From positions 320,001 through 384,000 of the forward strand of contig CAVRFW010000009.1 of assembly GCA_963720565.1 (NCBI GenBank): a DNA stretch of 64,000 nucleotides, given 5' to 3'. The notes beneath the pieces are model-generated. The model searched no databases and had not been told where the DNA came from. It worked only from the letters and a program-made list of their open reading frames with translations. The stretch's first letter is position 1. Each line of letters begins with the position of its first letter. The position numbers were made by a program, and so were the translations under genes. This document shows, piece after piece, positions 3,040 through 51,441 of this stretch. Source of the stretch: Candidatus Bathyarchaeota archaeon. Lineage in GTDB: Archaea; Thermoproteota; Bathyarchaeia; Bathyarchaeales; Bathycorpusculaceae.

Positions 3040-3149
3040 ACCTTCGGAAACCTTCTACAGCGTCAGATATGGTCTTGGCTTAGGGTTAGCAAGATTTATA
3101 CGCTATTAAACTATCACTTTATAAGCCTGAATTTACTATCTATCCAGCC

Positions 3150-4459
3150 GTGAACTCCCCAATGCTGAGCCAGAAAATGTTGAAAGGCGACAAAACCGCT
3201 GAAAAATGGTTATCCGACTTCCCCAAAGACACAACCAAAAGAACCTACCTAAACGCCCTCAACAACTTCAAGAAAATACTGGGAATAGCCGATCTAGGCG
3301 AATACCTCAAAAGCAACCCCGACGCAACAGCCGACTTTAAACGGTTCCTCACAGCATATAACGGCAAGCCAAGCAAAACCGTCGCCACATACTCAGGAGC
3401 CATAAAGATGTTTTTTGAAGACCACAACCTCAAAATTGAACGCGCCGACTGGCGCAAAATGAGGCGACGCGGTTTCATGCCTAAACGCATACGGGCGGAG
3501 ACAAAAGACAGAAGTCCCGACACCCCAAGAGTTAAGGAATATTCTGAAACACGCAGACATCAAATGTCGAGCTATGGTTCTGTTCTTATCAGCAGCGGCG
3601 GAAGAATCGGGAGAGCTTTGCAGTTGAAGGATGAAGACCTCAAGCTTGACGCTGACCCGCCGGAGGTGAATATTCGCAGAGAGTACACTAAAGGTGGGGT
3701 GGGCGGCAGAATCGCTTATTTCAGCTACGAAGCCCGAGACGAGATCAAAGAATGGCTGAAAGTGAGAGACACGACAACCAAACACGACGGAACAGGAACT
3801 TACAAAAGCGACAGAGTTTTTCCCTGAGGATTTTGGAACAGCCCGTTTCATGTTTAACAACGCGGTTAGGAAGGCAAAGCTGGAAAGCCGAGACACCGGA
3901 ACAAACCGCCTAGTTCCTGCACTTGCACAGCCTACGCAAATTCTTCAGAAGCAACATTGGCTTAGACATTGACGTAACACACGCCCTAATGGGACACACT
4001 GAGTATTTGGATGAGGCTTACCTGCGTCTTGAGCAAGACGGTGAAATAGCGAAGGCATACAAAGAAGGCATGGGCAACGTGTCAATTTTCGACAAAGAAG
4101 AACTTGCCCTCAGACAGAGAACTAACGGTCTTGAAGCTGAGAACAGAGAGTTGAAAGAGCGAATAACAAAGATGGAAAGCGAAAAAGATGATTTGCAGAA
4201 TCGCGTGTCAACAACCGAGAACAAATTGTCAGACTTGGAAAGCACCCGCGCTACCATAACGCAGGCCTTTACGGAAAAGAACGCGCAAATCATTGAGGAT
4301 CTTGGGCTACATCGAAGAAGCAGCTTGCGGAGCTGCAGACCGCCTTGGCCATAATTCGAGACGTTGTTCCTTCTGATTTGCTGGTTAGGCTTCAGCTTAA
4401 AAAGCTTCACAGGGAACAGAAAGAAATTCCCGGGGAGCAACGAAGCAAAGAACCAATGA
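3150..4459 (+). CDS. Tyrosine recombinase/integrase with C-terminal coiled coil (several frameshifts; end approximate)
   Basis: Catalytic motifs across frames: SGGRIG (R), EYTKG (K), HSLRKFF (HxxR), LMGH (H), LDEAY (Y); SAM-like N-terminus TKRTYLNAL..F. Confidence 0.88.
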
Positions 4460-5080
4460 AACTTCGCGCAGCGAACTGAGAGACACTGATTTCGCGTACG
4501 CTTCAGCGTGGTGGGCTATCCTTTTTCACACACGTTTTTTCCCATGGTTAAATGGTGTTTTCCATAAGTTTCGGCCCGTCTTTTCCCGCAAGGATGCACA
4601 GGTATACGAAGGATGGGAGAGGATGGGATGAGGATGCGAAGGATGAGATAAGGACGGGATGGGATGCTACCGCAAAATGAAGCTCTCCGCTTCTTCCTAT
4701 GGTAATTACCGTCGTTTCACATTGTCCTCCTTTATTTTGCTCCTTAGCGAGCGTAAGGAGGAAGCAAGGAGGAACCTCTAGCGTCCATCCTGTACGCGTC
4801 GCATTAACGGTAAGTGCATGCGTTCCGGATCTCCGGCGGCAACCCTCTCTTTCAGTCTGATGGTTCTGACCCATTTGGGTCTAGTCCCTTTCGACCTCGG
4901 ATTTAAATCAAAAAGGGGAAATAAAACAGTACATTGTCGCATACCTATTGAGCGGTTCCTTTCGGCAGCGGCACTTAACCAGGCGTGGAATCACTGGTTC
5001 TGTTGGTTAGGAAAGGAAAAAAGGGAATTGTGGGAGACATCTCCATTTGTTCCAGTTCACATAATCACAGGACGCTTGGT

Positions 5081-5412
5081 TCATGTCTTTCTTTTACGAC
5101 TCGGGCTCCTCAGCGATTCCGCCCATCTCGTGTCTTCTTGAGTTGGTTCCCCCCAGAACCTTTCCAGTTCCTTCTGCGACATGCTCTTCGGAGGGTAATT
5201 TGCGTTGAAGAATCTGCCCTTTCTAGTCACAGGTTTCCAATCGTGCCCTTCCGTGATTGCCAGAATGCCCTTGTAGTCTGAAACTTTGGAGAACGGGTTT
5301 TTGGCTTTAGGGTTCTTCAATTTCGGAATTTCTCTTTTCTTCTGAGACGACTCAAATAGTACTCGATGTCGAGAAGTTTCTTGAACATGTCCTTAAAATC
5401 GGGTTTAGACAT
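5081..5412 (-). CDS. Small hypothetical protein (frameshifted)
   Basis: ATG at 5412 (MSKPDFKDMFKKLLDIEYY) joining the 5081-5320 ORF after a frame change; no recognisable family. Confidence 0.35.
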
Positions 5413-5599
5413 TTGTAGTAAGTCTTTATCGTTTGTTCAACCTTAGGCTTTTTGAATTGCTAATCAGCGCGTTTTAGAAGCTCCATTCATTTGGTAGATG
5501 TTTTTCGGAATCTGAATGGTTTTTTGGGTTTATTTGTGTTGCAATAAGTGTTTTTAAGTAGCTAATTGACTGTGTTAGTGTTGGTGGTTTTATGGCAAT

Positions 5600-5798
5600 G
5601 CCCACGGTTGGAAGGTACAAATCATTCCAATAGAATCAGTAAGATTCCATTTTCAACGGAAAGACTTCCAACGATGGATAAAAGACATCTTTGGAGATAC
5701 AGAACTTGCCGTACAAATGAACAGGATAGAACCAGGGATTATCCGCTGAAGACTTGAGAAAAGAAATTCTCAGTATTGTAAACGCACTTGCAGTTTGA
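5600..5798 (+). pseudogene. DUF5752-like domain remnant
   Basis: Across frames: IPIESVRFHFQRKDFQRWIKDIFGDTELAVQMNRI..DLRKEILSIV, matching the FH...DF..W....GD.ELA pattern; 5' part missing. Confidence 0.6.
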
Positions 5799-6026
5799 TT
5801 GAGGAGACAGAGCGCACCCAAAAAAAGGGGATTGTGCGGGAGACATCTCAATTTTCAAATGGTTCGAATTCAACGTGTGCCAACCGAGAGCCAACCTTCA
5901 CAACAACTGAGGACTTACCGGTACATGCAACGCAACTACAAAGAAAATAATGGGCATGCGCTGGAAAAAGCCTAAATTCTAGTTCAACGAGGATATTTGA
6001 AAGAAATTGTTAAGGTTGACTTTTCA

Positions 6027-6483
6027 ATGAGTTCCTTGCTGGTAATGGTTTCTTACCATCACAATAACACCGAGAAAATCGCCGAAGTCTTCGCAAGAGT
6101 TCTGGATGCAAAGATAAAAACTCCAACAGAAACAACTGCTGACGAACTTCAACAGCGTGAACTCTTAGGCTTTGGCTCAGGCATATACTTTGGAAAACAC
6201 CACAAAGACCTACTCAAATTTGCCGACAGAATTTCCAAAGTCGACAACAGGAAAGCATTTATCTTCTCGACCAGCGGAGACGGAAGAGGCATTAGGTCGC
6301 ACACCCGCCTTAGGAGAAAACTGGAATCGAAAGGTTACAAAGTTGTAGATGAATTCAGTTGCGCAGGGTTCGATACTTTTGGCTTGATGAAATTCTAGTG
6401 GGGGGTATAAAGAAGGGTAGACCTGCGCTGCGGACCTCGAACAAGCTGAAGAGTTCGCTAAAAAACTGCGTGTTCAATCTTGA
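6027..6483 (+). CDS. Flavodoxin family protein (one frameshift near 6395)
   Basis: SYHHNNTEKIA, GFGSGIYFG, FSTSG, FSCAGFDT; continues GGIKKGRP..DLEQAEEFAKKL in another frame. Confidence 0.85.
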
Positions 6484-6632
6484 GTTAGCGCACTAGATTA
6501 ACAGACCGCCTAGTTGAAAGTAATGTTAGTCTATAAGTATCTGAAAAAAGAACATCTCCTCGAGTTCAAAGAGAAAGGCGCAATATTTGTCAACACGTTA
6601 TATAATCTTAGGTTTGCAGATGAATTCACCGA

Positions 6633-7018
6633 ACTAGATGTCAGCGAGATCTGGTAGAGCTGGTCGTGGTCAATCTCGGTCAGCGCTCGTGTATGCCACC
6701 ATCACTTGGCTGTCGAAAACGAGTCAGCTAGGGTCCTCGCATCCGATAGTCTTCCTAAAATCGTGCTTTATTGTTGAGTTTGAAAACAGGAGTTCGGCAG
6801 ACCGCTCATCAATAACGGTACCTATGTCGACGAGTTGTAGCATGCCCGAAGTCGGGATATTCCGCTGTTTTCCATCGCTCGGTACAGCAGGTGAAACTGT
6901 TTTGCCCACCTGACAGCGGCAGGTCGCAAGACTCTTCTGTCGACTCCCACGGGTTTAGTGGATCATCGGCTGAAGGATTGGGTTGTCTTGGAACCGTCTT
7001 ATTTTTCCGTGTCCTAGG
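6633..7018 (-). pseudogene. GH130/PH1107-like glycosidase-phosphorylase, N-terminal fragment
   Basis: Across frames: RRFQDNPILQP, NPWES, FHLLYRAMENSGISRL, GCEDP, LYQISLT; C-terminal two thirds absent. Confidence 0.65.
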
Positions 7019-7432
7019 AGTTAGTCGAGTGGCGAGCCCGAAAGAGTTGATCATCGAGTCTTCTGACGAGCAAGCAATTCCGACCAGTCCCCTTTTTGCC
7101 ATTCACCCTACAGGCAGGTGTCTTAGTCCCGATGCGAGACGATGATTCCGCCTCGCTTCGTCGAAGCGACGCCGCTTCTCCAATCGTGGCGACGTTTTTG
7201 GTCATCACCTGGTCAATTAGGCGTGTCCAGCGGAGACGTCGTTGGCTAACTATTCTTATGGCATCTCGCTCGGTGAAGATCCACCACACACTTCTTGGTG
7301 CTCTGTCCGTTACTGATACAGTTGAGCGCACGTGTTTTTCTTGCAGTATTTTGATGGCGTCTCTGCGACCGTGATGTTGGGCTTTGATGTTACCACCACT
7401 CTTCTCATTATTATGTGCTTTACCATTAGCAC
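7014..7432 (-). CDS. Small CBS-domain protein (frameshifted)
   Basis: MVKHIIMRRVVVTSKPNITV, IFTERDAIRIV, DQVMTKNVATI. Confidence 0.7.
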
Positions 7433-7512
7433 GTCTGTTTCGCCTCTGATGTTTAGTCTTGTTTTTCTTGGATTTATAAGGCGAACGACTGTTTAAAGAT
7501 TCACAATAGGCA

Positions 7513-8619
7513 CTAGAGCAGAGAGACTTCCGAGCTACGAATCAAGAACGGTTCGATTGCTGTGGCGTGCGAGTGGCAATTGGCAGTTTGATTGACGTGC
7601 AGAGAGGTAGCAGACAGTTGCTTCGGCTCCCATGGTTGAGGTTGAGTCCCTTCCTCGGTTATTCCATCGTAGCAGCCGCCTGTTGTCGCGTTGTAAACGG
7701 AGGCGCTTTTGGTGTGTTTATCCCCAGAAACCAGTTGAAGATGGTCCTGCGCGATTGTTTTGTAGTGAAGGTTGTTGTTTGCGCGGCAAGCTGACAGCGC
7801 TAGCTTCCGTCATAGAAAGCTGCTTCCGCCGATTGCTGATCGTACATCGACCGTGGTTCTCCTTTTAGCAGTACCAGCTCTCGTTTCCGATAGGCACGAA
7901 TGACTCGTCTCAGCAATCTGGACTTGTAAGGAGGAACTGCAGCGTTTCCTCCGCGGCGTGAATGCATTTTGTCTGTTTTGTTTCTCGGTAAGCCTCAAAG
8001 AGAGCTTGCGGAAGCCTGCCGTTCTCGTACGTGAGGTAAGGCTCAAACCAGCGCCAGCCGCGGGAACGCGACGTCCCGGCAGTATTTGAGCAAGTCTGTC
8101 TGAAAGTGCTTTTATGTTCTCAGTCAGGTTGCGGTCTCGGTGTAGGCCCTGCGGTAATGCCTGAGGCCAAAGTATTGCGAAAGGCTCGCGCTCGTCGGAG
8201 ATTTGAAGAAACATGCCCAGCGAAAGGCTTTGTCGAAGATTTCTTTTGCCAAGTCGTTTCTTTTCAGCTCGGGCAGTCCGCTGTTTATGACGTATCCACA
8301 AGCCCAAAAGGGTGCGAGCTGCACAGTCTTCGGAGGCTTCCTCGTCAAGGAAGTTTCGGTCGTAGCTTAGGAAGTTGTGCATCTTGCCGTCTGCTCTCTG
8401 CATGTGCAAGAGGAAGCTTAGGTACGTGTCTATCAACGTGTCAGATTGATGAGTTGCTCTGATTTGGCTGTGCTTGGCGACAGCTATGAGGGCGCGCGCG
8501 TTGTCGTCGGTTGTGTATCCTTCAAGCCGGTTTGGCGTTCCGAATTTTGTGTGCTGAAAGACACCGGTGTCATCTGTGATTGCTTCGAGGAAGTCTAGCT
8601 TGATAGGTGGGAGTTTCAT
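7513..8619 (-). CDS. Six-hairpin glycosidase-like protein associated with GT4 (heavily frameshifted; 3' end approximate)
   Basis: [33 protein letters not shown]-terminal GCYDG..LNLNHGAEA. Confidence 0.75.
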
Positions 8620-8634
8620 GATATAGGGGCCCTC

Positions 8635-9813
8635 TTAAGCGTGGATAGCTTGCTTGAATATGTTGTGTATTTTTTTGCGACTTTTGGCCACGTGAAGCTT
8701 CGATCCCCGGTACCTGTAACTTTCTTCTCCATGTCTCTTCTCAGTTCTTTGTTTTCCAAGAGTCTTCCTCACTTCTATGGTGATTGAGTCCGGGTTCCTG
8801 AACTCGCAGAGCAAGCCTCGCCCGTGAGACAGCACCTCTTTAGCGTGAAGGTAAGGAGTTGACACGACCGCTCTGCCAGCCCTGAAAGCGTAGACCAGAG
8901 TGCCGCTGCTGATTTGGTTTGCGCCGAGGTAGGGGCGTGAGGTAGACGTCGGTAGCTTGGAGATATTTTATCAATTCCCTTTTTGCGAGGAAGCGGTTGT
9001 GAAATCTTACGTGGTTCTTTAGCCCCAGTTGGTCGACCAGTTTGACGAGGTTGACGCGGTAGGTTTCGCCTTCGATTTTTCTGACCTCAGGGTGTGTTTC
9101 GCTGATCACGAGGTAGAGTATGTTTGGGTACTTCTCTACCATCGGCGGGAGCGCGTGGAGAACGTCCTGATGCCTTGCCCGCGTTCATCAGGCCAAACGT
9201 AGACAAGACGATTCTTCCTTTCAGGAACCCAGCGAGGGCTTTACGCTGTCACTGGTCACAAACGGAATGTCTGGGCAGCCGTGTTGGACTACGTTGATCT
9301 TGTCGTTTGAGCCGTCGCATTCGGCTTGAGCCTGTTCCCGCCGCTTTTGCCATGACTACGATCGCGTCTGGCTTCGAGCGAGGATTTCTTCAGAGTACGT
9401 TTGGCCTTTGATTCGAAGTCGGGTTGCACCGTGTGGAGTGTAGTGATGACCGGTTTTTGCACGTTTTGCAGGAAGGAGAGGACGTACTTTCCCGATTCGC
9501 CTCCGTATATTCCAAATTCGTGTTGAAGATTAACTGCGTTGATTCGTGATGAGTTGATGTAAGTGGCAGCTTGAATGTAATCTTCTTCGAAATCCTGTCT
9601 TATCTGTTGTTTGACCCTGCTGTCGTAATCGTAGATCGTGTCTATTTCATTCACGGCTATGACTCGGGCTGGTGCGAATTCATCGAGGAGATCCACAGAG
9701 TCGACTAGGTCTTTGGTGAAAGTGGCTATTCCGCACTCTCTTGGAACGTATGTCCCTAGAATAAAGGCAATGTATTTTTTGTTTGATTCTGGAATTCCGG
9801 GTTTTGCGAACAA
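8635..9813 (-). CDS. GT4 family glycosyltransferase (frameshifted)
   Basis: GTYVPRECGIATFT, LQHEFGIYGG, TTLHTV, ETHPEV, ATDVYLTP, STPYLHAKEVL. Confidence 0.85.
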
Positions 9814-10026
9814 TTTCTCACATTACCTTGGCTGGATTTGGCGTTAGTACAAGAAATCGGTTGAATTTCTGCTTGAAAACGCCTTTGTTTATTAATAATT
9901 GTTCGCCACTAAAAAATCTGGTGCTTGTTGCTGTTGTTCTATTATTTGACAAGTGAATAGCACGTTATCAAATTAGCGCGCGTTGGTAGACACAGCAGAT
10001 TCTGTTGGGTTTGAACCAGTAGGTTA

Positions 10027-10209
10027 CTACTCGTGTCCTCTTGTTTCATGGTGCATTGTATCTCGGTGTCTCTCCATCTCCGAGTTGGTTTTGAAGGTTT
10101 TGCCGCAGACTGGACAAGGAATCTGGCTTGGTTCTACTCCCCTCACTGGTATCTCTTGAGACGACGGCGCCCCCAACGTGTGAGGCTGATGAGGTTTCTT
10201 GTCACTCAT
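10027..10209 (-). CDS. Small C2H2 zinc-finger protein
   Basis: CPVCGKTFKTNSEMERHRDTMH. Confidence 0.8.
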   Translation of the reverse strand: MSDKKPHQPHTLGAPSSQEIPVRGVEPSQIPCPVCGKTFKTNSEMERHRDTMHHETRGHE

Positions 10210-10619
10210 AACTTACACCTAAACACTCTACTAGCTGGTTCAAGCTTTCTTAAATATATGTGACTGTAGCGAGACAATGACAAAGTCACCTTTGTTTCAA
10301 GACTCGAGTGGCACGCGTGTGTGTTCCTAAATTCGCTTTAGAGTGAGTCTGATACCTCTCCATGGGATGAGCGAGCGCAGGAGAAGAACAACAACACCCA
10401 TTTTTTTCCGAAACACACAACCGTTTTTCTTTCACACATTCTTCCGAGTTATTTTAGCGCGCGCTCGGGTTTGCCCTCTTTAAACGCGGCTAATATGCAT
10501 CTTTCAGAGAAGCCCATTTCAAGCTCTAAATACCAAAATCTGACTTATCACCATTTTTAACCAATTTCGGGACAGGGCAGCGCGCGCTTATTATTTACGT
10601 AATGAGACCTAAGCTATAA

Positions 10620-11781
10620 TTACGTCAACGGAAATCTTCGCCTTAAATAGTCCTTTGCGAATTCGCGGTCATGTGATAATTCTTTGCTTTTCACAATTTG
10701 GCCCTCAAGCCTATCCAAAGCTACCCTAAACGTCTGTTCCACACCGAATCCCTCACCTGAACTGAAAAACGAGCCCTTCCTCGTTCTGAATTGCAGTCGA
10801 CAGTGAATCAACTGATCACCCTTGAAGGGGGTGCCATGCGTCTTGAAGTAGACAAATAGCGTGCCCGATTCCAATTTTTCTCCGTATCTGTGGGTGAAAG
10901 ATTCGAAGTCACCCATAATGAAGCCTCGTTGGGATTCATCAATCTCCACGTCTTTAACAGAAAACTGCACAGTAAGCCTTTGCACTGGCTGCTCCATCTG
11001 AGCTAAAGGTTCAAGAAAATCCCGTTTAGTTATGATGCCGACAGGTCTTCCTTTGCTGACGATTACCAAAGAGGAAATGTTGAATTTGTGCATTTGCTCT
11101 TCAGCATCTCGCAATTTGGTTTCAGGCAAGACAGTGACCACGGGTTTCACCATTATACCCTTCGCCGGAATACTCAGAACAGGAACTTTCTCGCCTACTC
11201 TTTCGCCAACCCTTTGCACCTGTCTAGGCTGAAAGACAATCTCAATAATATCGGAAATACTTACGATTCCCACGAGTTTTCCTTCTCTGACTATCGGCAG
11301 GTGAGAGATTCCCTCGCGTCTGAAAAGGCTTAGCACCGCCCCTAGCGATTCGTCTTCTTCGATGATGAACGGCTTCTTGGTCATTATCTCTTCAACACGG
11401 GTATTGCCCCATTGCTCATTTACGGCTCCATGGATAACGTCCTCATCGGTAATGAACCCCAAGAGTTTCTCTCCGCTGTAGACTGGGAGTTGCCTAGTTT
11501 CGCTCTCAATCATCAACTTAGCGACCTTGCTGAGAGAATCCTGCAGGGTAACAGCAGGGGCTGGGCGCATCAAAGTCTTGACTTTGGTTCCTGAAGCATC
11601 AAGACTAGACCGTATTATCGATTTGCGAGAAATGACCCCTTTGTACCTGCCTTCATTATCCAATACCGCTAAAACAGGCGGCGTCTCTTTCTTGAAAAAG
11701 TGATAGACAAGAAGAAAGTGTATCGTTCTCATGAACTTCTAAAAAGCCTTTTGAAAAAACATCTTCCACAACCTTAACCAT
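10620..11781 (-). CDS. Four-CBS-domain protein with C-terminal HPF/RaiA-like domain (Hib-type ribosome hibernation factor); one frameshift near 11697
   Basis: Real start MVKVVEDVFSKGFLEVHENDTLSSCLSL at 11781 joins the 10620-11732 ORF; four CBS repeats; C-terminal VQFSVKDVEIDE...CRLQFRT..FFSSGEGFGVEQTFRVALDRLEGQIVKSK. Confidence 0.8.
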
Positions 11782-11918
11782 AGAAACCACTTCAGCAGTA
11801 TCAGTCTCATGGCGTAATTTAAGCATTGAAAGGATAAAGTTGCAGCCTTTTTTCGGAAAATAGGCAACAGTAACGCATGAATTAGCAAAGGGGGGAAGTC
11901 ATAATAAGCGCGCGCCAA

Positions 11919-11955
11919 ATAGTAACACATAGTAATTCATAGTAAAATATAGTAA
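11919..11955 (+). promoter_or_regulatory. Four ATAGTAA direct repeats at exact 10-bp period upstream of the RHH gene (probable operator)
   Basis: ATAGTAA at 11919, 11929, 11939, 11949. Confidence 0.6.
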
Positions 11956-11988
11956 CATGTATTAAACCGCGTACCCAAATACTAATCC

Positions 11989-12144
11989 ATGAAAACACTA
12001 AAAATAACTGAACAAACCCACCAAGAACTAACCCGAATCAAAGGCGCCGTCACGCAAAGAACCGGCACAGAAACCACATACGACGAAGCCATCCAAGAAC
12101 TGATAGCAGTATGGATTCTAAAACATCAAGCATCCGGGCAGTAA
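11989..12144 (+). CDS. Small ribbon-helix-helix / VapB-like DNA-binding protein (51 aa, not in ORF track)
   Basis: MKTLKITEQTHQELTRIKG...ETTYDEAIQELI. Confidence 0.75.
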   Translation: MKTLKITEQTHQELTRIKGAVTQRTGTETTYDEAIQELIAVWILKHQASGQ

Positions 12145-12311
12145 TTGTGTACTATACTATTGAGAACCCCCAACCGTAAACGCGGGCTGACGGGCTTCAC
12201 ACAAACATTTTCTTTAGGCACTAATCACTTGAAACTCAAATTTCATTAGCGCGCCTATGTGAAGTCGGTTAATTAACCTTTCTTCTTTTCATTCTATTCC
12301 CCATTTCTCTT

Positions 12312-12444
12312 TTCATTCTTCCTCGTCCTAAAGGATGGGCACGCGCCTATTCGCTGACAAAGCAGCACTATGGCTACGCATCCAGACCCTCCTCAATCGC
12401 GCTAACGTCCACACCCAAGAGACAGCGCTAAAACGAGGAAGAGT
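12312..12444 (-). ncRNA. Putative IS110 bridge/seek RNA (ends approximate)
   Basis: 10-bp closing stem (12317-12326 with 12433-12442) extended by G-U pairs only on the minus strand; internal segments match target and donor junction sequences. Confidence 0.7.
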
Positions 12445-13438
12445 TCAGGCCTGATCGTAATACGGACGCTTATTCTTCAACACAGAAAAACTGCACAACA
12501 ACAGCTTCCTGGCAGCAGCCACCACCGCAACCTTCTTCCCCTTCCTCTCAGCAATCCGACTATACGCTCGAGTAATCGACGTGTCGTACTTGTGAACATG
12601 AGTCTGAGCAGCCTCAACCATCACCCAACGCAGCCAACGACTACCCTCCTTCGTAATGTTGCCATGCCAAACGGTTCTTCCAGAAGCATGCGTGGAAGGC
12701 AACAAGCCCAGCGTAACTGCAAAGCCTCTCGGGAAAAGGAAACCGGTTAACATCTCCAATCTCACTCTTCACTAGAACCGCCGAGTAATAGCCGATTCCC
12801 GGAATAGTCATCAACAACTTAACATCCTCATCACCCTCAGCTATCCCAACAAGCTCATTAGAAAGAAGCTTAATTTCCTCGTCCAACGGTTCGAGAATTC
12901 GCAAGTAACACTCGATCGAATCAATGTTCAAACCACGCAGCCACTCAACGCCTTTCTTCGTGAACAAGCCACTGATCGGAAGGCCACTTCAAACCCTCAT
13001 GCGTCAAGACGCTTTTGATTTTCACTCTGAGCTTAACGCGTGTCCCTCACTAGGAAAGCTCTACGCCTAACCTTCTCTCGGAGGTTAGCGATTTCTCCAG
13101 TCGGAAAGTAAGCCAACGGCAAAGCGTCCAGCCTGACGAGTTCAGCTATGGCTTTAGAGTCTACTCGGTCGCTTTTAATTTTAGCCTCAGCGATGTAGCG
13201 GGTCTTCTTCGGATGAGAAACCACAACGTCATATCCCTTACTGAGTCAGCTGCCTGAACAGCGGTGCGATCTGGTTGGAAGATTCCATTCCGACCTTGGA
13301 GACTTTGAAGTGCGACAGATACGGCAGTACTCTTTCATTTTCCATTCTTGTTTGGTTAACTATCTTTCCTTCAGGGTTCAAAATTGTCGCATAAGTGCTG
13401 TCCTTATGCACGTCCAACCCGCAAACGAAGGCGCTCAT
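12445..13438 (-). CDS. IS110 family transposase/recombinase (three or more frameshifts)
   Basis: GLDVHKDS, GMESS, KSDRVDSKAIA (DEDD RuvC); TIPGIG, YAGL.PSTHASG, GSRWLRW, AAARKLL. Confidence 0.93.
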
Positions 13439-13899
13439 AACATGGCGTGAGCGCCTCTTGCGTAAAACACTTCCCATACCATCGCGCTAACGTAGTTACG
13501 GTGAAGATGCAAGCGTGTTATATTATGTCTTTTATCGATTTCACTTGTTTAACCTAAAAAATAGATCGCAAAAACCATAAGTGAAAAAGAGATACCTATT
13601 AGGTAACGAATCTATAAGAGAACTAGTTATGAAGCAAGGGATCGATATGCTCCAAGGTCGAATACCTAGCGACATATTCATACGTCAATATTGGAGTCCT
13701 AAGTTAAACAGCTTAGAGATAAGACCTACATAGCATCAAAGGAGCTAGACAGTACAACAACAGATCAGGCAGTTCAGTAAAATAACCCGAGTTTCTTTCT
13801 ATTCTCTATTATTTTAGAATATCAATCTGTGATCTAATCAATATTGACACATCCACATGCTTAAATATTCAGTGCAGAAAGATATCTTATGGATATAGA

Positions 13900-14420
13900 A
13901 TGTCAGAAATAAACAAGAGAAAAAACATAAAGGTAGAGTCTAAGGCTATAGATAAAGAGCTAGAGAAACTTAAGAAAGAGCTATTCGCCGATATTGTATC
14001 AGTGGAATCAGTGGAATCAATTAAGACTAGGAGGAAAAGAAGAGAACCCAAGTACTCTATGGTGGCTGAGGCTATCAAGCTAGTAAGCTAAGATGTCAAG
14101 GAATGCCTATAGACTTAACTTGGAGAAAGTGTTCCAATTAGAGAACTATAGTAAGCTAGGTCCGAAAGAGAAGAGCGCACTGGTTAGAAGGGTCTATCGC
14201 AATACTTGATCGATACCTAAAGGAGTTTGCTCGTGCACATGGCTATGATCTATCTAAGAAAGAATTGAAAAAGAACAGAGCAGGAAATGAAATCATCATT
14301 AAGGGAGTTAAGATGGCTACACTTCCAGAGTACACTAGATTTAAGAAAGAAACTATCAGTATGAGACTAGTTGGATCTGATATCTACCTAATCAAGCAGA
14401 GTGATATGCCAATTGAATGA
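13900..14420 (+). CDS. Hypothetical Lys-rich protein in AT-rich DNA (about two frameshifts)
   Basis: 13900-14091 ORF continues MSRNAYRLNLEKVFQ.. and ILDRYLKEFARAHG..SDMPIE* in adjacent frames. Confidence 0.45.
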
Positions 14421-14458
14421 ACATATTAGCGCGCGCGTTATATATTGGTGAGTAGAGA

Positions 14459-15291
14459 ATGTTAAACGATGAAAACACGGACCTCCTGCTGGGTTTGGGC
14501 TTGAGTCCTAATCAAGCAAAAGTCTACCAAACCATACTTAAATTAGGTTCCGCTACCGTCAGGGATGATAGCGAAATCTTCTGCAGTGCGCAGGGAAGAT
14601 GTGTACAGGATTTTGCCAGCACTTGAAAGGATGGGATTAACAGAAAAACTGCTAGGCAAGCAGCTTACGATTCGGAGCAATGCTCCCTGTCGCTGGCGCT
14701 TTGACTTCATTGATAGTTGATGAAAAAGTTAAATCGGATGAAAGAATAGCCACGATGAAAGAGAAATTCCGAAAATTGGTCAAAGTGAAATGGACACAAC
14801 CCGTTAGTTTGGGTAAAGAAGAAAGTCTCTATGCACTGATACCGGAGGGCAAAGCAATTCTGGCTAAAACCTCCGACTTAATTGTTAACTCAAAAAAGGA
14901 AATTTTCTGGATTGAAAATCAAGGAGAAATCCTGCGTAGTTTATACAATTCTTCTAAGGAGTACGTGGGTGCGATCCGCAGAGATGTGATTGTTCGGATG
15001 ATTTTCGAAGATTGCAGGCCAGATGATCTACTAAGAAAACAGGTGCAATCTCTAATAAACAACAAATCCACTCTTGTCAGGTTTCACCGTCAACTTCTGA
15101 ACCGCTTCATGGTTTTTGATAGCAAAGAAGCGTTGATTACAACCGATAGAAAAAGTGGCTTAACAGAAGCCCCAGTATTATGGACGACTGACAACAACCT
15201 TATCGGCGTGCTAAAAGGATATTTTGAGAATTCATGGAAAGAATCTGAAGAACTGATACAAAACAAGCCACTTCCAAATGACAAACAGTAG
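14459..15291 (+). CDS. TrmB family transcriptional regulator (frameshifted N-terminus)
   Basis: LGLSPNQAKVYQTILKLG..IAKSSAVRREDVYRILPALERMGL wHTH; C-terminal FMVFDSKEALI..WTTD..YFENSW. Confidence 0.85.
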
Positions 15292-15548
15292 TGCCTCACG
15301 GGTCTTCTCAAAAATAGCGCGTGGTTATTCAAAAACTCAGTTTAGGACGCGCAGGCAAGTTAAATAATTGTTTTGCTTCTCGCAGCAGTGCTTCTAACAT
15401 GTCATTTCCCAAGGGTTCTTGAGAGACATTCGCTTTGAATCTCTCCCAAAGACCACTCGACGACTGAAGATTAGCTTCTTGAAAACACTCGTGACCCCTT
15501 CAGAATCGTGGCTCACGCTATTTTACCCTCCAGTTTAATCCCCAGCTT

Positions 15549-16556
15549 TCAAGCAAAATACGCTATGCTGTACCGAAGCTCCGGTCTCCCAATGAAGGCA
15601 GCCGCAATAGCGACGGCGTAGACCAAGCAGAACGCAAGACACGTGTGTATGCAGGCGTTCCAGAGTCCCTGCCAAGTCAATCTACCATACGCCAGACGAG
15701 ATTTCACCCTACCGTTCAAGCTTTCAGATTTCGCCCTCAACATCTTGTAGACAACGCGAAGGTGCTCAGGGCCCTCAACGTCAATGCGATCCTTCACAGA
15801 AAGCACGTCCGAAGGGTTCACCCGGCCCCTCAAACGCCTCCACGCAATGACATCGTCTATCTTCCTGGCTTGAAGCGCATCAAACACTTGACCGGATTCG
15901 AACTGGCTGTCACCAGCGACCAGCTCCACTTCAATGTCTTCTCCAAGCAACCTGTCCAGCAAAGGCTCCACAAGCAGCTTCTCGTTGACGTTGGCTGGAG
16001 CTTCCACGTGGCCAAGCGGGAAGCCCTCGATGTCCACGAGAAACAGAGACTGGTAGCCCAGAACGAAGCCTTTCTTTCCTCTTCCAAGCCTGGCGTCAGG
16101 GTCGCCGAGGCCTCGGCTCGTGTCGTGTGGGTCTCGGCTGCTTCAGGCTGGAAGGTCGGTGCCGTCCACACATGCCGCTTGAACTAAGCCGACGGCAGAT
16201 AGAGGTTGGCTTTCTCTGAGTCTTAGGGCTTCGTGTCGCAGCCACTTCTCTATGGCGCGGAAGCCTTCTGGGCCTATGCGTTTCTTCATCTGGGAGAAGT
16301 GGGCTTCGGTTGGTACTTTGTTGTTGTATCCGCAGGCGGAACGCATTTCTTTGTTTCTTCTGAGGCGTTTGACTAGGTCTTTGATGTAGGGTATCTGTTC
16401 CAGTTGACGTAGCATAAGCGCTCGCAGGTCACACGCCGGATCATACTCGACTGGTCGCCCTGCGCCCTCGAAGTGTAGGCCTTTCCAGAGGATGGAGTGG
16501 AGAGGTTTTAAATTCAAGTTTTCGAATAGAAGGGTTGGAGAACCTGATCTCTCCAT
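15549..16556 (-). pseudogene. IS5/IS1182-like DDE transposase with in-frame nonsense codon at 16143-16145
   Basis: GRPVEYDP..LRALML, CGY..VPTEAHFS, VDGTDL, DPDARLG, GDSQF, RAKSESLNGRVK; the two ORFs are in one frame separated by TGA. Confidence 0.85.
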
Positions 16557-17331
16557 TTCTCATCAAAATAGCGAGGTCAGGCTCTCCTAATATAACTTTG
16601 AATTATTTAATCCGCCTGCGCGCGCCTTGGAAGATAGTCTAGAAGTAGTGAAAAAATTGTTGAGAAAACCAGTGGATTTGATGATGCCCGAAGTATGGAT
16701 TACTACCTTAAAGAGTTGTGTAAGGGCAAGGTGAATGAGTGCAAAAATGTGTTCCAAAATTGGGTTGATACCGAGAAAAATACTGTGTTTAAGTTCAGGG
16801 CGCAAAGAATACTTCAACTTCTCGAGACAAATCAATGCATGTTTCCACCTAATAGGGCTAATTGATAACTGCCTTACGGTACTGTTATCTATCGTTCTTT
16901 CTGATACGCTACTTCCACCCAGAACTCCTTACAAATGGCGATTTAAAGAAGAAGTGATAGGAAAAGAAAACTGCAAAGTCTTTACCTTAGTTGCCCGTCA
17001 GCTGTATCCTCCTGGGGGACTCTATATCAAGTCCAGCATAGTGGAAATGCTTCAAAAGGGGCAGATGAAAAAAACCGGAGAATTTCAACGGCTTATCAAT
17101 TACCTTCAAAATTTGTAGCCCGTGCGCGCTACTCGTCTAAGAATGGACGGTAACAAATCACTTTCGAAGGCCCTGAAAATGGATAATTATGTTGAGGAGA
17201 TCGGTGAGGAGTTCTCGGAAGATTAAGCCGAGATCGTAAACGTGACGTTCTCAAGTAGCTGCAAGACATCTACCTTTAGCAGAGCAAAATCTTTTAGGCG
17301 CGGTGACTATGTACTGTTTGGAGACTTTTGT

Positions 17332-17538
17332 ATGCCTTTTTGGAAGAATGATGATCCAAAGAAGAAGGCTGAAGAAGCAGCCAAGAAGACCGCTGAAGAA
17401 GCTAAGAAAGCAGCCGAAGAAACCGCTGATAAAGCTAAGAAAGCAGCCGAAGAAACCGCTGATAAAGCTAAGAAAGCAGCCGAAAAAACCGCTGAAGAAG
17501 CTAAAAAAGCAGCCAATAAAGCAAAAGAGAAAATGTAA
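17332..17538 (+). CDS. Small LEA-like hydrophilin with 11-aa repeats
   Basis: MPFWKNDDP then repeats of AKKAAEETADK; 33-bp tandem units at 17401-17499. Confidence 0.7.
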   Translation: MPFWKNDDPKKKAEEAAKKTAEEAKKAAEETADKAKKAAEETADKAKKAAEKTAEEAKKAANKAKEKM

Positions 17539-18211
17539 CAAAGCATCTGCGTCTTTATTTTCCTCTCTTTTCTTTTAGGAGCTCACAGTCAACCCAACAG
17601 TTAAGCGCGCGCTTGCGTTACTGGAAGACGCCTTTTAAGGTCCTTCCAAGTGAGTTTATCGTTGAGAAGGGAGAACGGAACAAGAAGAGTTGACGAGTGT
17701 CAACCAAGCGTTGTGCGACCATTCGAAACAGAGGCGTTATACTCAGAAGCAGTTTGACATTCTGAACGGTTTTGATCTGATTGAGACGAGATGCCTCAAC
17801 TGTCACAAGATTCTGGATTTGGCCATTAGCAAGATTAATGCGTGCGCGTCTCCCCAATAGCACTCTGCAGCCAGCAGGCGTCTTTCAACTTCAGAAAGTC
17901 TATTGCTCGCTGGTTTCCAGCTTTGGCGCGCGCGCTTTGGGATGAGAAGCCTGATGGTTAGTGCGTACTATCGAAAACATTAAATGCCTTATCCAGAACA
18001 TAATGTGCGGCGGAAGACCTCAGATCATGGAATCTTGGGGGAAACTTGGACTGAACGCCCAGAAAAATAGTAAAAAAGGGCGGGTAAAGCGCAAGTTTAC
18101 CATGAAATACCAAGATTTATATGAACGAAGGGCACTTCTCCAAGTGAAAAGTTCCCCATAACATGTGCAAAAAGCACGTGGGTTTATGGAGGAACTTAAC
18201 CGAAGGGAGAT

Positions 18212-47478: not shown

Positions 47479-47608
47479 TCTTTACAACTCCAAATATTTG
47501 GTTCCCTGGAGTGGTCAATTCTGCTTATAAGGACCATTAAAGAACAATTTTGGAGCCTAAATGAGCTGAAGCTAAACCTAATTAGATGCTTCCAATGAAT
47601 AGGAAATT

Positions 47609-47914
47609 ATGCACAAGATGGTCCAGTATGCAATAACAGTTAACATCATATTGGCTTTGGCATTTGTTTATGGTAACTTTTCACTCTGGAGTTTTGTAAA
47701 TGCTGAGTACCCACTTCTGATTGCTAGCCATTGGAGTCCATTCCTAATTACTGCTCCACATTATTATTATAGTAACGGCGACCTTTCAATAGCTACAACA
47801 CTCTTCTTGGCATTCAATACACCATTTTGGATTTTCTGGATTATGTTAGCAGTAAACTTGGGCTTTATCATCTTGCTTGGAAGAAACAAAGAGGCAAAAC
47901 AAAACACAACATAG
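47609..47914 (+). CDS. Small two-TM membrane protein, array family A
   Basis: VNIILALAFV..LWSF..WSPF..NTPFW..NLGFI..GRNKEAKQNTT. Confidence 0.75.
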   Translation: MHKMVQYAITVNIILALAFVYGNFSLWSFVNAEYPLLIASHWSPFLITAPHYYYSNGDLSIATTLFLAFNTPFWIFWIMLAVNLGFIILLGRNKEAKQNTT

Positions 47915-47985
47915 AGTGCATCATTTTTTAGTGCGATCTAAAACAGTTTGACTGGTTGGGAAAAATGTGCGAATCTATGGTTACG

Positions 47986-48155
47986 TTAAGAGAACTTGTG
48001 AAGCTTCTTTATTGCATTCTCCAACCAACCCCAAGGGTTGCCTTCTAACCAAATCGGACTCTTGGGTTCTTCTGTCTGTTTGAAGAACTCTTTTAATCGC
48101 TTGACAAGTTTGTCAAGCCAAAGCCACGGATTGTCAAACCATGTACTTCAGGCAT
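47986..48155 (-). CDS. Small protein with duplicated NPWxWL motif (frameshift near start)
   Basis: WFDNPWLWLDKLVKRLKEFF..GNPWGWLENAIKKLHKFS*. Confidence 0.45.
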
Positions 48156-48197
48156 TTTCTCATCAACTAAAGCATATAACTCATGCCATACTCTTTT

Positions 48198-48225
48198 TGG
48201 TGCGTAGAGAAAACTTTACGGAAAA
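48198..48225 (+). repeat. dif-like 28-bp site, copy 1
   Basis: TGGTGCGTAGA-GAAAAC-TTTACGGAAAA. Confidence 0.85.
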
Positions 48226-48257
48226 TCTTAAAAGCCAATAGCCTTAAAGTTGTAGCC

Positions 48258-48517
48258 ATGTCAAAGCAATTGATGTTGATGGTTTTGTTTAATGCGTTGA
48301 TATGTCTGCTCTATGTGTTTTTCCATGTTTACCTTTCTACACAATCTAGCTATGTAGCGATGGAGGCTTTTTGCTTGGATGCACATGGAGCTGACCCAGC
48401 CTTTTGGACCACGCATTCGGAACTACTTTACTTGGCTATTCGTATTATCAACTTTGGCAAACCTGTACTTCATCATCAAGCTGGGAAGAGGCAGAGAGTG
48501 CAAAACAAAGCGCATAG
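48258..48517 (+). CDS. Array family A membrane protein (frameshifted)
   Basis: MSKQLMLMVLFNALICLLYV..RNYFTWLF..NLYFIIKLGR..AKQSA*. Confidence 0.6.
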
Positions 48518-48534
48518 AGTTCCTTATTCTTTTT

Positions 48535-48562
48535 TGTTGCGTAAAGAAAACTTTACTGAAAA
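48535..48562 (+). repeat. dif-like 28-bp site, copy 2
   Basis: TGTTGCGTAAA-GAAAAC-TTTACTGAAAA (perfect GTAAAG/CTTTAC dyad). Confidence 0.85.
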
Positions 48563-48596
48563 TCTTAAATCTGCAAAAAGTAGAAATAATCTAAAC

Positions 48597-48793
48597 ATGG
48601 GCTATAAGGGCTTACTGAGTTTTGCGTTGGTGGAGTCTTCCTTAACATTGCACTAAATATCATGTTATCTAGTTTTTTGGAAATGATGTTGCATTGATGG
48701 CTGTTCTGGTATGGTGTGCAGCATTGAGTTTTGTTGGTTTTCTGTTGTTGGGCTATGGACTAAATCAGAGAGGCAAAACAAAACACAACATAG
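48597..48793 (+). pseudogene. Short hydrophobic ORF (frameshifted) ending in the family-A tail
   Basis: MGYKGLLSFAL.. and 3' AGAGGCAAAACAAAACACAACATAG identical to the 47609 gene tail. Confidence 0.5.
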
Positions 48794-48803
48794 AGTGTAC
48801 AGT

Positions 48804-48831
48804 TCACTGGTAGAGAAAACTTTGCACAAAA
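48804..48831 (+). repeat. dif-like 28-bp site, copy 3 (divergent)
   Basis: TCACTGGTAGA-GAAAAC-TTTGCACAAAA. Confidence 0.75.
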
Positions 48832-48871
48832 ACTAAATCTCAAAACATCTTCTATTACTCTGGGTGAGTAC

Positions 48872-49213
48872 ATGTCTAAGTGGCATGTGTTTGTTGCAAT
48901 AGTGTTAGTTTTCAATGTGTTAGCGGGAGTAGGTTTTGTTTTGCAAACAATATGTTGTGGGACTACCTGAATAAGCAAATTAATGAAGTAGGAGGTAACA
49001 AAGGGGAAGGTAATTTTGTGATACCGTTCATTTTGGATTCTGGTCTTCATGTGACTGTGGGTCATGAGTTTTGGTTTGAGAATGGGACTCTTGTTAACCT
49101 TGGACCTCTTCCAATAGGAGTTCCTAATTATTCCTTTCATTGTTTTCTGGGTTTACGCGGTGGGTAACTTGGGTTTCATAGCGTGTGCACGAGTTTTCAT
49201 GAAACAGGATTGA
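48872..49213 (+). CDS. Array family A membrane protein (frameshifted)
   Basis: MSKWHVFVAIVLVFNVLAGV..NNMLWDYL..VPNYSF..GNLGFI. Confidence 0.6.
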
Positions 49214-49269
49214 GCAGATTGCTAAGAAGAATGGAGACAGGATTGAGCAGATTGCTAAAAAGAATGGAG
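49204..49269 (+). repeat. 33-bp tandem duplication
   Basis: ACAGGATTGAGCAGATTGCTAA(G/A)AAGAATGGAG twice, one mismatch. Confidence 0.9.
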
Positions 49270-49310
49270 AATAGAACAGCGAAATAGAGAAACATCATAA
49301 TTCAAGCTTT

Positions 49311-49338
49311 TGGTGCGTAGAGAAAACTTTACTGTGTA
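49311..49338 (+). repeat. dif-like 28-bp site, copy 4
   Basis: TGGTGCGTAGA-GAAAAC-TTTACTGTGTA; similarity to copy 7 extends about 60 bp further. Confidence 0.85.
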
Positions 49339-49403
49339 TTCATAAAAACCAAATATCCACAAATTTAACAGTTGAATGCTTAAGCCCTGCAGGAAGTCTA
49401 GCG

Positions 49404-49742
49404 TTGAAACATCCTAAACTTGTTTATGGAATCGTTGCAGTTTTGGGATTGTTCCTTCTGATTACACTTTTTTCTGTGGCTTTTCGGAATTCAATCAATT
49501 ATGGTTCAGGAGAGAATGTAATACTACCTCTTGATTTTATCTGGTTTTCGTTAATAGGTGGAACAATTTTCTTTACAGTTGGAACTTGCGGAGTTGGAAG
49601 GCAATACCTTAGGAACAGTCAAAACCCATTTACACGCAGGTCCGCAGACTCATATACGGTGCTTGCTGCAATTCTAATTCTGTCAATTGTATCTGTCCTG
49701 TTTCTGTATTTTTGGATGGGCAGCCTAACAGTTGGATTCTAA
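49404..49742 (+). CDS. Small three-TM membrane protein, array family B
   Basis: MKHPKLVYGIVAVLG..GVGRQY..LFLYFW. Confidence 0.75.
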   Translation: MKHPKLVYGIVAVLGLFLLITLFSVAFRNSINYGSGENVILPLDFIWFSLIGGTIFFTVGTCGVGRQYLRNSQNPFTRRSADSYTVLAAILILSIVSVLFLYFWMGSLTVGF

Positions 49743-49762
49743 AATCACTATGGAGCTAAACG

Positions 49763-50077
49763 ATGAAACATCCCAAGCTTGTTAATGGTTTTGTTGCAGT
49801 TTTGGGAATTGTTCTTCTAACAATATTCTTTCTCATTCTAAGAACTCTGTTTGGAGTTCCTTTTGGGATGTTTGAACTTTGGGTTTTTAGCTCACTGTTG
49901 GTATGTTTTGTCATTAATGGAATAATTGGCACAGCTGGAATACTTGGAGTTGGAAGGCGATATTTCAAAGATAATCAGAAGTTTGTGCCTGCTGTCCTTT
50001 TGATTCAATCATCATTGACCATAATCTTGTTATATATGTCGCTGGTACTCCCTCTTTCCAGAGTATATCTCCTCTAA
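49763..50077 (+). CDS. Small three-TM membrane protein, array family B
   Basis: MKHPKLVNGFVAVLG..GVGRRYF; tandem paralogue of 49404. Confidence 0.75.
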   Translation: MKHPKLVNGFVAVLGIVLLTIFFLILRTLFGVPFGMFELWVFSSLLVCFVINGIIGTAGILGVGRRYFKDNQKFVPAVLLIQSSLTIILLYMSLVLPLSRVYLL

Positions 50078-50131
50078 AAGGAAATCCATACACCATATTC
50101 AATTGTTGAAAAATCAATATGGGATAATGCG

Positions 50132-50611
50132 TTATTCTTTTTTGGTGCGTAGAGGAAACTTTGCTTTGTATAAAATCAAGATTCCACAAGCTATGGTGAC
50201 AAGTCCAGATGCTAGAAATTCTATTTGAACTAGAACAAAGTACATTATTAAGAGATTGATAGTGGGAAGAAGCAAAATGCAGCCTAATACCTGAAATCCT
50301 ACGCCCATCGCGTTGCTGGGTTGCTGTGATGTTATTGAACCGTATGTCAGCATTACTATTCCGCATGTTAGAGCAAAAAGTCCTAGTATTGCGTACGGAA
50401 AGACAACAAGGATAAAGTCTGGATAATAAATAAATCCAGAAACAACTATTTGGGAAAGTCCAGTGATGCCCCAGAACAAGGCTACTTTTCGATAGTGTGC
50501 TGGGTATCCTAGCAAGGCAACTATTCCTGCTATGATGAATGCTCCCATTAGCCATGTATAATACTGTACATAATCCCACATTGGAGGAATTGGGACAGGT
50601 GAAAATGACAT
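50132..50611 (-). CDS. Multi-TM membrane protein in opposite orientation (start 50611 preferred to 50722)
   Basis: MSFSPVPIPPMWDYVQ.., about five TM segments; its last codons KAKFPLRTKKE are read from site copy 5. Confidence 0.7.
   Translation of the reverse strand: MSFSPVPIPPMWDYVQYYTWLMGAFIIAGIVALLGYPAHYRKVALFWGITGLSQIVVSGFIYYPDFILVVFPYAILGLFALTCGIVMLTYGSITSQQPSNAMGVGFQVLGCILLLPTINLLIMYFVLVQIEFLASGLVTIACGILILYKAKFPLRTKKE
50143..50170 (+). repeat. dif-like 28-bp site, copy 5
   Basis: TGGTGCGTAGA-GGAAAC-TTTGCTTTGTA. Confidence 0.8.
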
Positions 50612-50682
50612 GCTAATTGCAACTGCTCTTAGTGTTTGTTTTCTATGTGTCTTCTTATTATGATAGTTTTGCTTAAGAAATT

Positions 50683-50710
50683 TGGTGTGTAGAGATAACT
50701 TTTCAGAAAA
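50683..50710 (+). repeat. dif-like 28-bp site, copy 6
   Basis: TGGTGTGTAGA-GATAAC-TTTTCAGAAAA. Confidence 0.8.
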
Positions 50711-50751
50711 ATTAAATCCCAAATGCTCTTCTATTGTATCAGGGTGGGTCC

Positions 50752-51066
50752 GTGTTTAAACAGCTGAAACTTGTTATTTTGGTTAATGTTGTGTTGGGTT
50801 TGCTTTTTGTTATTTCTGACTATTTTTTATGGAGTTTTATTCGTTGGGAGAGCTGGAGTTACAATGGTGCAGTGCCAAGTTGGTCTCCTCTATTCATAAC
50901 ACCTACTTACCAGCCACCAATTGAGCCAAGACCTTACATTTTAGCACCTACTCCAGTGCCACATCTGAATATTCCTTTTCTACTGTTCTTGGCAATGTTT
51001 GTAACAAACATGTACTTCATGGTTAAGCTTGGAAGAAACAAAGAGGCAAAACAAAACATAACCTAG
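50752..51066 (+). CDS. Array family A membrane protein
   Basis: VNVVLGLLFV..LWSFI..WSPLF..NIPFL..NMYFM..GRNKEAKQNIT. Confidence 0.75.
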   Translation: MFKQLKLVILVNVVLGLLFVISDYFLWSFIRWESWSYNGAVPSWSPLFITPTYQPPIEPRPYILAPTPVPHLNIPFLLFLAMFVTNMYFMVKLGRNKEAKQNIT

Positions 51067-51079
51067 AGTGTGATTGGAA

Positions 51080-51226
51080 ATGAGCGATTCTAAACCAGTA
51101 AGATGCCAAAAATGTGGAAGACCTGTGGGCTACATTACTGTGTTAGTTAAAGGTCTGATGGGCTTGCAGCAGCCTATACATGATTTAAAAATTTTAGCAG
51201 TTTGCATGGACTGTTCAAAAAAGTGA
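51080..51226 (+). CDS. Small Zn-ribbon protein (48 aa, not in ORF track)
   Basis: MSDSKPVRCQKCGRPVG..AVCMDCSKK. Confidence 0.65.
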   Translation: MSDSKPVRCQKCGRPVGYITVLVKGLMGLQQPIHDLKILAVCMDCSKK

Positions 51227-51278
51227 GTGGCTCAAGCTTTCAACACAGAGCTAGCTTTCAGAAACACAAATGAAGTTT

Positions 51279-51306
51279 TGGTGCGTAGAGAAAACTTTAC
51301 TGTGTA
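51279..51306 (+). repeat. dif-like 28-bp site, copy 7
   Basis: TGGTGCGTAGA-GAAAAC-TTTACTGTGTA, identical to copy 4. Confidence 0.85.
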
Positions 51307-51441
51307 TTCATAAAAATCAAATATTCACAACTTTAGCCAATTGACTGCTTAAGCCTCGCAGGAAAATCGTTAAACATTTAGTGTCTGTTTGAGGTATTGG
51401 GAATTAGGAGGCAGTCTCAAAGATAATCGAGGACTATTTAC

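Follow-up and report, generated by a model that had tools for sequence, protein, structure and literature searches.

The accessory DNA of an uncultured archaeon raises a simple question: why do short alternating GC tracts recur between its genes, and what wrote them? We considered this question for a 64,000-nucleotide stretch of a Candidatus Bathyarchaeota archaeon (contig CAVRFW010000009.1; G000:C9:320001-384000 in our labels), here called the window, to which all bare coordinates refer. It belongs to assembly G000, which comprises 2.09 Mb in 13 contigs and is 89% complete. A first-pass annotation of the window had proposed that (T)AGCGCGC(GC) tracts mark nearly every module boundary, either as a recombination core or joining scar, or as a structural signal used by insertion sequences (ISs) as a safe harbour. 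We found that the tracts are enriched in accessory DNA, lie at junctions, usually lack a counterpart on one flank or both when homologous DNA is compared, and have A(GC)4T as their modal product. They are probably scars of DNA joining that arose de novo and were later reused as landing sites.

Tracts are present at all of the window positions named previously. The run at 15317-21 is only 5 bp long, and the two sites described as weaker, at 5467 (5 bp) and 6488 (GCGC only), are at chance level. The tracts and related runs, including the flanks of miniature inverted-repeat transposable elements (MITEs) and of two larger elements treated below, are as follows:

9976-9982, GC tract of 7 bp, right end of the 6624-9981 module; G002 contig C5 shares this module (85%) up to GCGCGC and then has a different neighbour
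10457-10464, A(GC)4T tract of 8 bp, joining two MITE fragments; the homologues on G000 C13 and C12 are both run-free here
10580-10587, GC tract of 8 bp, flanking an element end of type C
11908-11915, GC tract of 8 bp, bounding on the left a 250-bp module that contains a small open reading frame (ORF); G002 C15 matches 11904-12153 (94%) and has another left neighbour
12249-12254, left half of the IS110 target TTAGCGCGCTAA, split by the IS110 insertion
13483-13487, right half of the same target
14429-14437, GC tract of 9 bp, spanned by the X1 and X2 contigs; no homologue was informative for the junction test
15348-15352, CGCGC run bordering the DDE element on its left, distinct from the site at 15315 named in the first-pass annotation
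16618-16625, GC tract of 8 bp, right end of the DDE element
17124-17129, GC tract of 6 bp, after a stop codon
17605-17612, A(GC)4T tract of 8 bp, common to contig L088; a junction relative to G002 C10
17926-17935, GC tract of 10 bp inside a 7-bp direct repeat, occupied by a type A element in L088 (runs of 8+6 bp)
51854-51862, GC tract of 9 bp at the end of a cassette array
53611-17 (7 bp), 53758-64 (7 bp) and 57480-90 (11 bp), three tracts with no homologue for comparison

The enrichment suspected earlier is borne out genome-wide, as GCGCGCGC is the most over-represented of all 8-mers in G000, with 176 copies on both strands against 43 expected under an order-4 Markov model; GCACGCGC variants are likewise enriched. 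DNA colinear with the related genome G002 was taken as core, in a comparison covering 1.46 of about 1.5 Mb, and coding and intergenic DNA were separated with a crude, purpose-made gene caller. On this basis, 127 intergenic tracts of 7+ bp fell in 309 kb of non-core DNA, a class that also takes in core DNA which G002, being 74% complete, lacks, against 4 in 94 kb of core (p = 1e-10); the coding DNA of the core held a further 13 in 680 kb. Five order-3 simulations of the accessory intergenic DNA yielded 37-46 tracts of 7+ bp, compared with these 127, and 10-17 of 8+ bp, compared with 63 observed. The near absence of tracts from the core part of the window, noted by eye before, also held, with a single 6-bp match between 18.1 and 47.2 kb. 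Around the tracts we detected no flank consensus beyond a T at +1, no general excess of direct repeats and no excess of inverted repeats; 7-bp direct repeats occurred at 2/131 tracts in G000 (0.2 expected) and 0/179 in relatives. Contig C9 beyond 500,500, a GC-rich tail unlike the remaining genome and possibly foreign or misjoined, was inside the 8-mer statistics, the gene calling and the G000 length distribution, and outside later counts.

Tract number varies widely among relatives. Across 150 family genomes, all of them metagenome-assembled genomes (MAGs), copies of AGCGCGCGCT, that is A(GC)4T, ranged from 0 (55 genomes) to 115, against 0-8 for the reversed control, and spanned 1 to 53 in a single genus; the 24 genomes having at least 20 copies were classed as tract-rich, leaving 126 others. 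The decay of tract lengths in G000 (65, 41, 18, 6 and 1 for 7-11 bp) would fit microsatellite slippage, and an assembly artefact might also be suspected. Slippage is, however, excluded in favour of a discrete product, because AGCGCGCGCT exceeds the shorter AGCGCGCT, A(GC)3T, in 18/24 tract-rich genomes (104 vs 38 in G106, for example) and because lengths in G161 peak at 8 bp (16, 41 and 14 for 7, 8 and 9 bp); shared tracts, moreover, showed no change in length. An artefact is ruled out by the recurrence of the same tracts in independently assembled samples, among them contig L088, where the 17605 tract is identical and the flanks of 17926 are 99% identical. We therefore consider this pair of explanations extremely improbable. 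Separately, GC runs of up to 14 bp occur near contig ends in G003 (C23, C35, C84), though AGCGCGCGCT is absent from that genome.

When tracts were compared with homologous DNA, 27/30 informative ones coincided with junctions, against 121/292 nearby control sites (p = 2.5e-7); 101/131 G000 tracts had no homologue, and junction calls are favoured because some of the database had been selected for the presence of the elements described below. The tract at 51854-51862 does fall exactly at the end of the cassette array, as the first-pass annotation stated, and the paralogous array on C5 continues run-free. The array itself (47500-51853) consists of small membrane-protein ORFs separated by repeats of 45-90 bp, with paralogous arrays on C5 and C3; it is cassette-like and gave no Rfam hit. 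The converse claim, that nearly every module boundary carries a tract, proved too strong. Among 193 sharp G000-G002 synteny-break ends, 29 had GCGC within 10 nt and 7 had a run of 6+ in either genome, against per-genome backgrounds of 4.5-5.3% and 0.4-1.0%, respectively. Alignment with relatives thus supports the tracts as junctions and shows that most breaks lack a tract, as do the ends of the large island described below (3100/18111) and the module end at 6624. The latter is a recurrent module end, tract-free here and in G002, which X6 shows fused to the end of the type A element at 15348.

The origin of the tracts is best seen at half-sites of 8+ bp tracts other than element ends. G000 and its tract-rich relatives contain 484 of these, of which 58 had a close homologue, and the homologue was run-free at 35/58, sharing 0 (23), 1 (9) or 2 (3) letters with the tract. 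Both partners are run-free at 10457 and at C4:26741, and intact MITE copies of type B continue past the position corresponding to 10455 with no run. Colinear comparisons allow individual events to be read: G000 C2:62153 differs from its homologue by +12 bp in frame, made up of a 7-bp duplication plus GC filler; the tract at L476:1623 is +6 bp relative to four homologues; that at L476:1775 stands where 27 bp were replaced; and L469:150 and L469:1962 provide further cases. L476 contains three new tracts inside 300 bp. Some colinear comparisons place new tracts inside genes. Letters missing from both parental ends are present at 10457, C4:26741, L476:1775 and L469:698, and the joints are ragged, with deletion, duplication and short microhomology. 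The joining-scar interpretation put forward earlier is therefore supported by both the junction excess and the run-free homologues.

These results bear on the proposal that the tracts are older functional sites (for protein binding, Z-DNA, chromatin or termination) that attract breaks and elements, a variant of the structural signal suggested at first. Their palindromic, alternating purine-pyrimidine character, the enrichment of GCACGCGC variants and the conservation of a few tracts between species (C5:73241, L465/L466) would fit such a role. It is nevertheless improbable, and largely refuted by de novo origin: tracts are ten times rarer in core intergenic DNA, their density is similar for all arrangements of neighbouring genes (34, 34 and 27 per 100 kb, no orientation bias), 55/150 relatives lack the 10-mer, counts differ from 1 to 53 in one genus, and new tracts arise within genes. 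A promoter function is likewise disfavoured by the orientation, core and relative counts.

Site-specific recombination, by the integrase gene at 3150 or by the IS110 bridge recombinase, or religation of GCGCGC restriction cuts, had also been suggested. The relevant features are:

3090-3100, + strand, CAAGATTTATA, att-like repeat bounding the island on the left and distinct from the GC tracts; joint in X1 and X2, empty in G002
18111-18121, + strand, CAAGATTTATA, right att-like repeat of the island; joint in X1 and X2, empty in G002
12255-13482, - strand, IS110-family element (PF02371; NF033542 below cut-off), transposase in pieces, short left and long right end, single copy
12342-12431, - strand, CGCGCCTAT (12342), CGCGCTAAC (12398) and AGCGCTAA (12424), guide-like copies that lie in the right end of the IS110 and match donor and target junctions

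The region 3100-18111 is a 15-kb island absent from G002, and contigs of the sequencing runs X1 and X2 join 3089 to 18111 with 11 shared letters; this comparison with other sequencing runs used contigs only, from 4/22 runs (X1, X2 and X6 among them), and was confined to runs with a share of 0.2 or more. The gene at 3150, broken and XerA-like with a score below cut-off, likely encodes the tyrosine integrase of the island, and as the island is bounded by the 11-bp CAAGATTTATA and not by a GC tract, it is not a credible tract maker. Many island genes (3150-16556) carry frameshifts or internal stops; as other runs correct some of the indels, part of this breakage may be assembly error.

The IS110 element combines a Transposase_20 domain with a long non-coding end holding predicted target and donor guides, in a layout resembling the IS1111 type described in PMC11208160 (short left end, long right end, guide-like site copies). 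The guide-like copies may act as a bridge RNA. They are unchanged in L040 and all three are altered in L039, co-variation seen in one relative only, and the predicted fold of the right end reaches a z of only -1.85. The L039 relative (G112) has guide-like segments pointing to a different, also roughly palindromic target. Next to the element, 13490-14407 is AT-rich, with ORFs of no tested family, and its X6 contig has a depth of 115 vs about 11 nearby, possibly as part of a multi-copy element. IS110 was not found in viral contigs.

For recombination as the source of the tracts speak the match of these guides to TTAGCGCGCTAA, losses between one tract and another (60 bp in L076 vs G000 C2; about 160 bp in L487 vs L498) and a duplicated 3.65-kb module with tract ends. 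Most partners, however, have no site, which refutes it as the origin. Nor does IS110 presence track tract number (4/24 tract-rich vs 20/126 other genomes). Religation of GCGCGC cuts fails because 35/58 partners had no such site, and GCGC is only mildly under-represented genome-wide (12112 vs 13178). We consider this explanation quite improbable for the formation of tracts; recombination may act secondarily, and existing tracts do serve in the tract-to-tract losses.

The idea that tracts are a harbour for ISs fared better, although the first-pass annotation had missed their main user, a DDE element with its MITEs. GC runs host one IS5/IS1182-like DDE clade with five end types, together with the MITEs belonging to it, as well as one lineage of IS110. 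The window contains:

15353-16617, - strand, DDE insertion sequence with type A ends (DUF772 + DDE_Tnp_1, by Pfam), terminal inverted repeats, 94% to P0002, one in-frame TGA
10317-10455, + strand, MITE with type B ends, right end shortened by the next tract; many copies in G002 and G004
10467-10579, - strand, IS/MITE end fragment of type C, 83% to G000 C12:91132-91251, end score 24.3

The pattern built from the window MITE ends matched mostly Bathyarchaeia records; 15 or 16 loci from outside Bathyarchaeia were dropped, as was L302, a duplicate of G002 DNA. In a set of 100 related loci, 136/141 distinct type A flanks end in GCGC, and 52/56 whole copies have GCGC on both sides. A run of exactly 6 adjoins 232/355 element ends of all types, the type B search having demanded 6 on one side. 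Relatives at 26-53% identity bear the remaining four end types, and each of these too is bordered by GC runs. The transposases of the clade (328-335 aa) score under every NCBIfam IS family cut-off, IS1182 and IS5 being nearest: P0002 reaches 59.7 vs 270 bits (IS1182) and 35.5 vs 140 (IS5_4), and the L288 protein 142 vs 270 and 103 vs 140, respectively. Within G000, tblastn recovered one full copy and two fragments of the clade transposase, and a PF01609 family search gave no match although the element is present.

Comparison of L088 (element present, runs of 8+6) with 17926 (empty, 10 bp) fits a 4-letter target duplication, a net figure from one filled/empty pair in which the border between element end and duplication is unfixable inside the GC run. 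Empty MITE sites numbered 0/40, and among 103 whole elements the L088 pair was the only one. The single head-to-head element junction, in L334, was uninformative. A host duplication outside the runs was considered and not accepted: those of 3 bp numbered 23 where 10.7 were expected, but type B showed no constant register.

Could the DDE clade itself make the scars? Its elements would take GC runs with them when they move, insert at breaks or remove target DNA as they insert, and later leave via a GCGC overlap, so that 6+6-4 gives A(GC)4T; in a variant, GC would be both the first letters of the element ends and the duplicated target, each cycle adding two letters. The clade transposase is the best cross-genome predictor of tracts (19/24 tract-rich vs 29/126 other genomes), and type B end count correlates with tract number (Spearman 0.55). 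At L084, an element with runs of 6 and 8 bp replaces 336 bp of G000 C2 DNA, both joints being run-free in G000, and several element ends (L393, L350, L244) adjoin run-free homologues. Run pairs of type A are mostly 6+8 (14/49), though 10-bp tracts are rare. Precedents exist for IS1272 replacing its target without duplication (PMC5678879) and for DDE elements entering breaks (10.1101/2024.06.02.596822). On the other hand, 5/24 tract-rich genomes gave no transposase match and 29 genomes that gave one are tract-poor; the element in tract-free G081 is flanked by runs of only 4 and 2; no clean GC footprint was found in colinear DNA, nor any +2/+4 footprint in conserved tracts (0/29 four-base gaps); and the three new tracts in L476 would imply three cycles. 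Strand transfer by DDE enzymes is precise, and the joints here are ragged. The correlation would also be expected if elements merely need tracts. Since a recognisable DDE element end lies beside only 8/131 intergenic tracts of 7+ bp in G000, most tracts are more than flanks of present elements. Authorship by the clade is possible, if doubtful.

We tentatively favour an end-joining activity over the transposase as maker, because element ends are rare at tracts, the G081 runs are short, L476 has its three tracts, and 17926 fits an ordinary 4-letter duplication. A precedent is the Saccharolobus primase PriSL, which can pair ends through 2-4 GC pairs and, by terminal transferase activity, add bases without a template (PMC12019639). 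On the scar reading, repair of a break or capture of a foreign fragment would give each end a short (T)AGCGC(GC) tail; such self-complementary tails could anneal in either orientation, leaving the palindrome behind. The elements would be followers, duplicating four scar letters on insertion (6+6 from 8), and the scar would mark DNA that had tolerated a break. The tail maker may be a patchily distributed end-joining activity other than Ku/LigD or PolX, although we put this forward with some reserve. A broader proposal, that some Bathyarchaeia carry an enzyme capping broken or incoming ends with this tail as a universal linker, thereby driving gene capture free of homology or att sites, and that an ancient DDE clade, as well as a reprogrammed IS110, evolved to read the scar, is speculative and rather unlikely to hold in full.

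Several observations count against a joining scar written by end joining. Most synteny breaks lack a tract, as noted, and the run was present also in the homologue at 23/58 half-sites. Although 25/53 colinear tracts of 7+ bp are run-free in the homologue, many of these are plain codon substitutions, which were left uncounted as scars. Homologue identity is 82-99%, and several homologues back the polarity of a tract in only some cases. The transposase remains the best genomic predictor, and candidate enzymes do not follow the tracts: Ku occurs in 9/24 tract-rich vs 16/126 other genomes, LigD polymerase follows Ku, and the PolX thumb domain was found in 15/150 genomes, G000 not among them. PriSL, being general, would not explain the patchy tract distribution. 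Related genomes are also non-independent, and p-values of the cross-genome gene associations are overstated because the genomes are MAGs and kin. Ku/LigD and PolX were rejected as required makers; Ku was not found in 15/24 tract-rich genomes, including the 100% complete G106, while G000 has both Ku and LigD. In G000 C3 (L521:4761-7587), genes for LigD polymerase, Ku and an ATP-dependent ligase lie in a row; Ku is present in 25/150 family genomes.

Several known systems resemble the tracts in part. With the filler of end joining, by Ku-LigD non-homologous joining or by the microhomology-mediated joining of Saccharolobus PriSL (PMC12019639), they have in common that letters are added at uneven joints, which show deletions, duplications and microhomology of 0-3 nt. 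They differ in having one defined palindromic sequence of modal length, with Ku/LigD not required. End-joining fillers, to our knowledge, are either of random sequence or templated by neighbouring DNA. Repetitive extragenic palindromes (REP) and attC sites used by IS110/IS1111 elements (PMC11208160) are likewise short intergenic palindromes serving as landing sites. The tracts, at 8-12 bp, lack stem-loop arms and flank consensus, are confined to accessory DNA, arise at joints and are targeted by a DDE clade too. REP sequences and their mosaic arrays (BIMEs) have a 20-40 bp stem-loop consensus in core intergenic DNA, where we counted 4 tracts in 94 kb; integron attC sites have paired RYYYAAC...GTTRRRY arms, and the tract flanks showed no inverted-repeat excess. 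An Rfam search gave no match except two tRNAs. IS5/IS1182-type elements and IS1272 (PMC5678879) share DUF772 + DDE_Tnp_1, terminal inverted repeats, MITEs and a palindromic target with the clade, whose 328-335 aa transposases fall under all NCBIfam cut-offs and whose five end types share one GC-run target. Excision footprints are also short remnants marking where an element once sat, and such places can be targeted anew, but no clean footprint was seen here, and type B has no fixed-register host duplication outside the run. Such footprints are left on excision by Tc1/mariner (TA) and hAT elements. Our literature searches, which did not extend to ISfinder, found no report of GC-run scars or GC-run-targeting elements in Bathyarchaeia.

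The joining of unrelated DNA ends in Ku-less archaea is poorly known, and a filler of fixed sequence would be a readable record of joints, pointing to an unknown end-tailing or transposase activity. The tracts offer a simple marker of accessory-DNA junctions in a large uncultured group, one 8-bp site on which DDE elements and a predicted RNA-guided IS110 converge, and a DDE transposase aimed at 8 bp of GC might find use as a site-selective tool.

Two further repeats in G000 involve tracts. The 3.65-kb module occurs in two copies (C13:122009-125655 and C1:3-3646; 90%), encodes RNase H-like and Hrq1-like helicase proteins, and is tract-bounded and transposase-free. A family of repeats of about 90-110 bp has ten or more copies in C7:55000-95000, and one repeat is cut by a tract at C10:2218.

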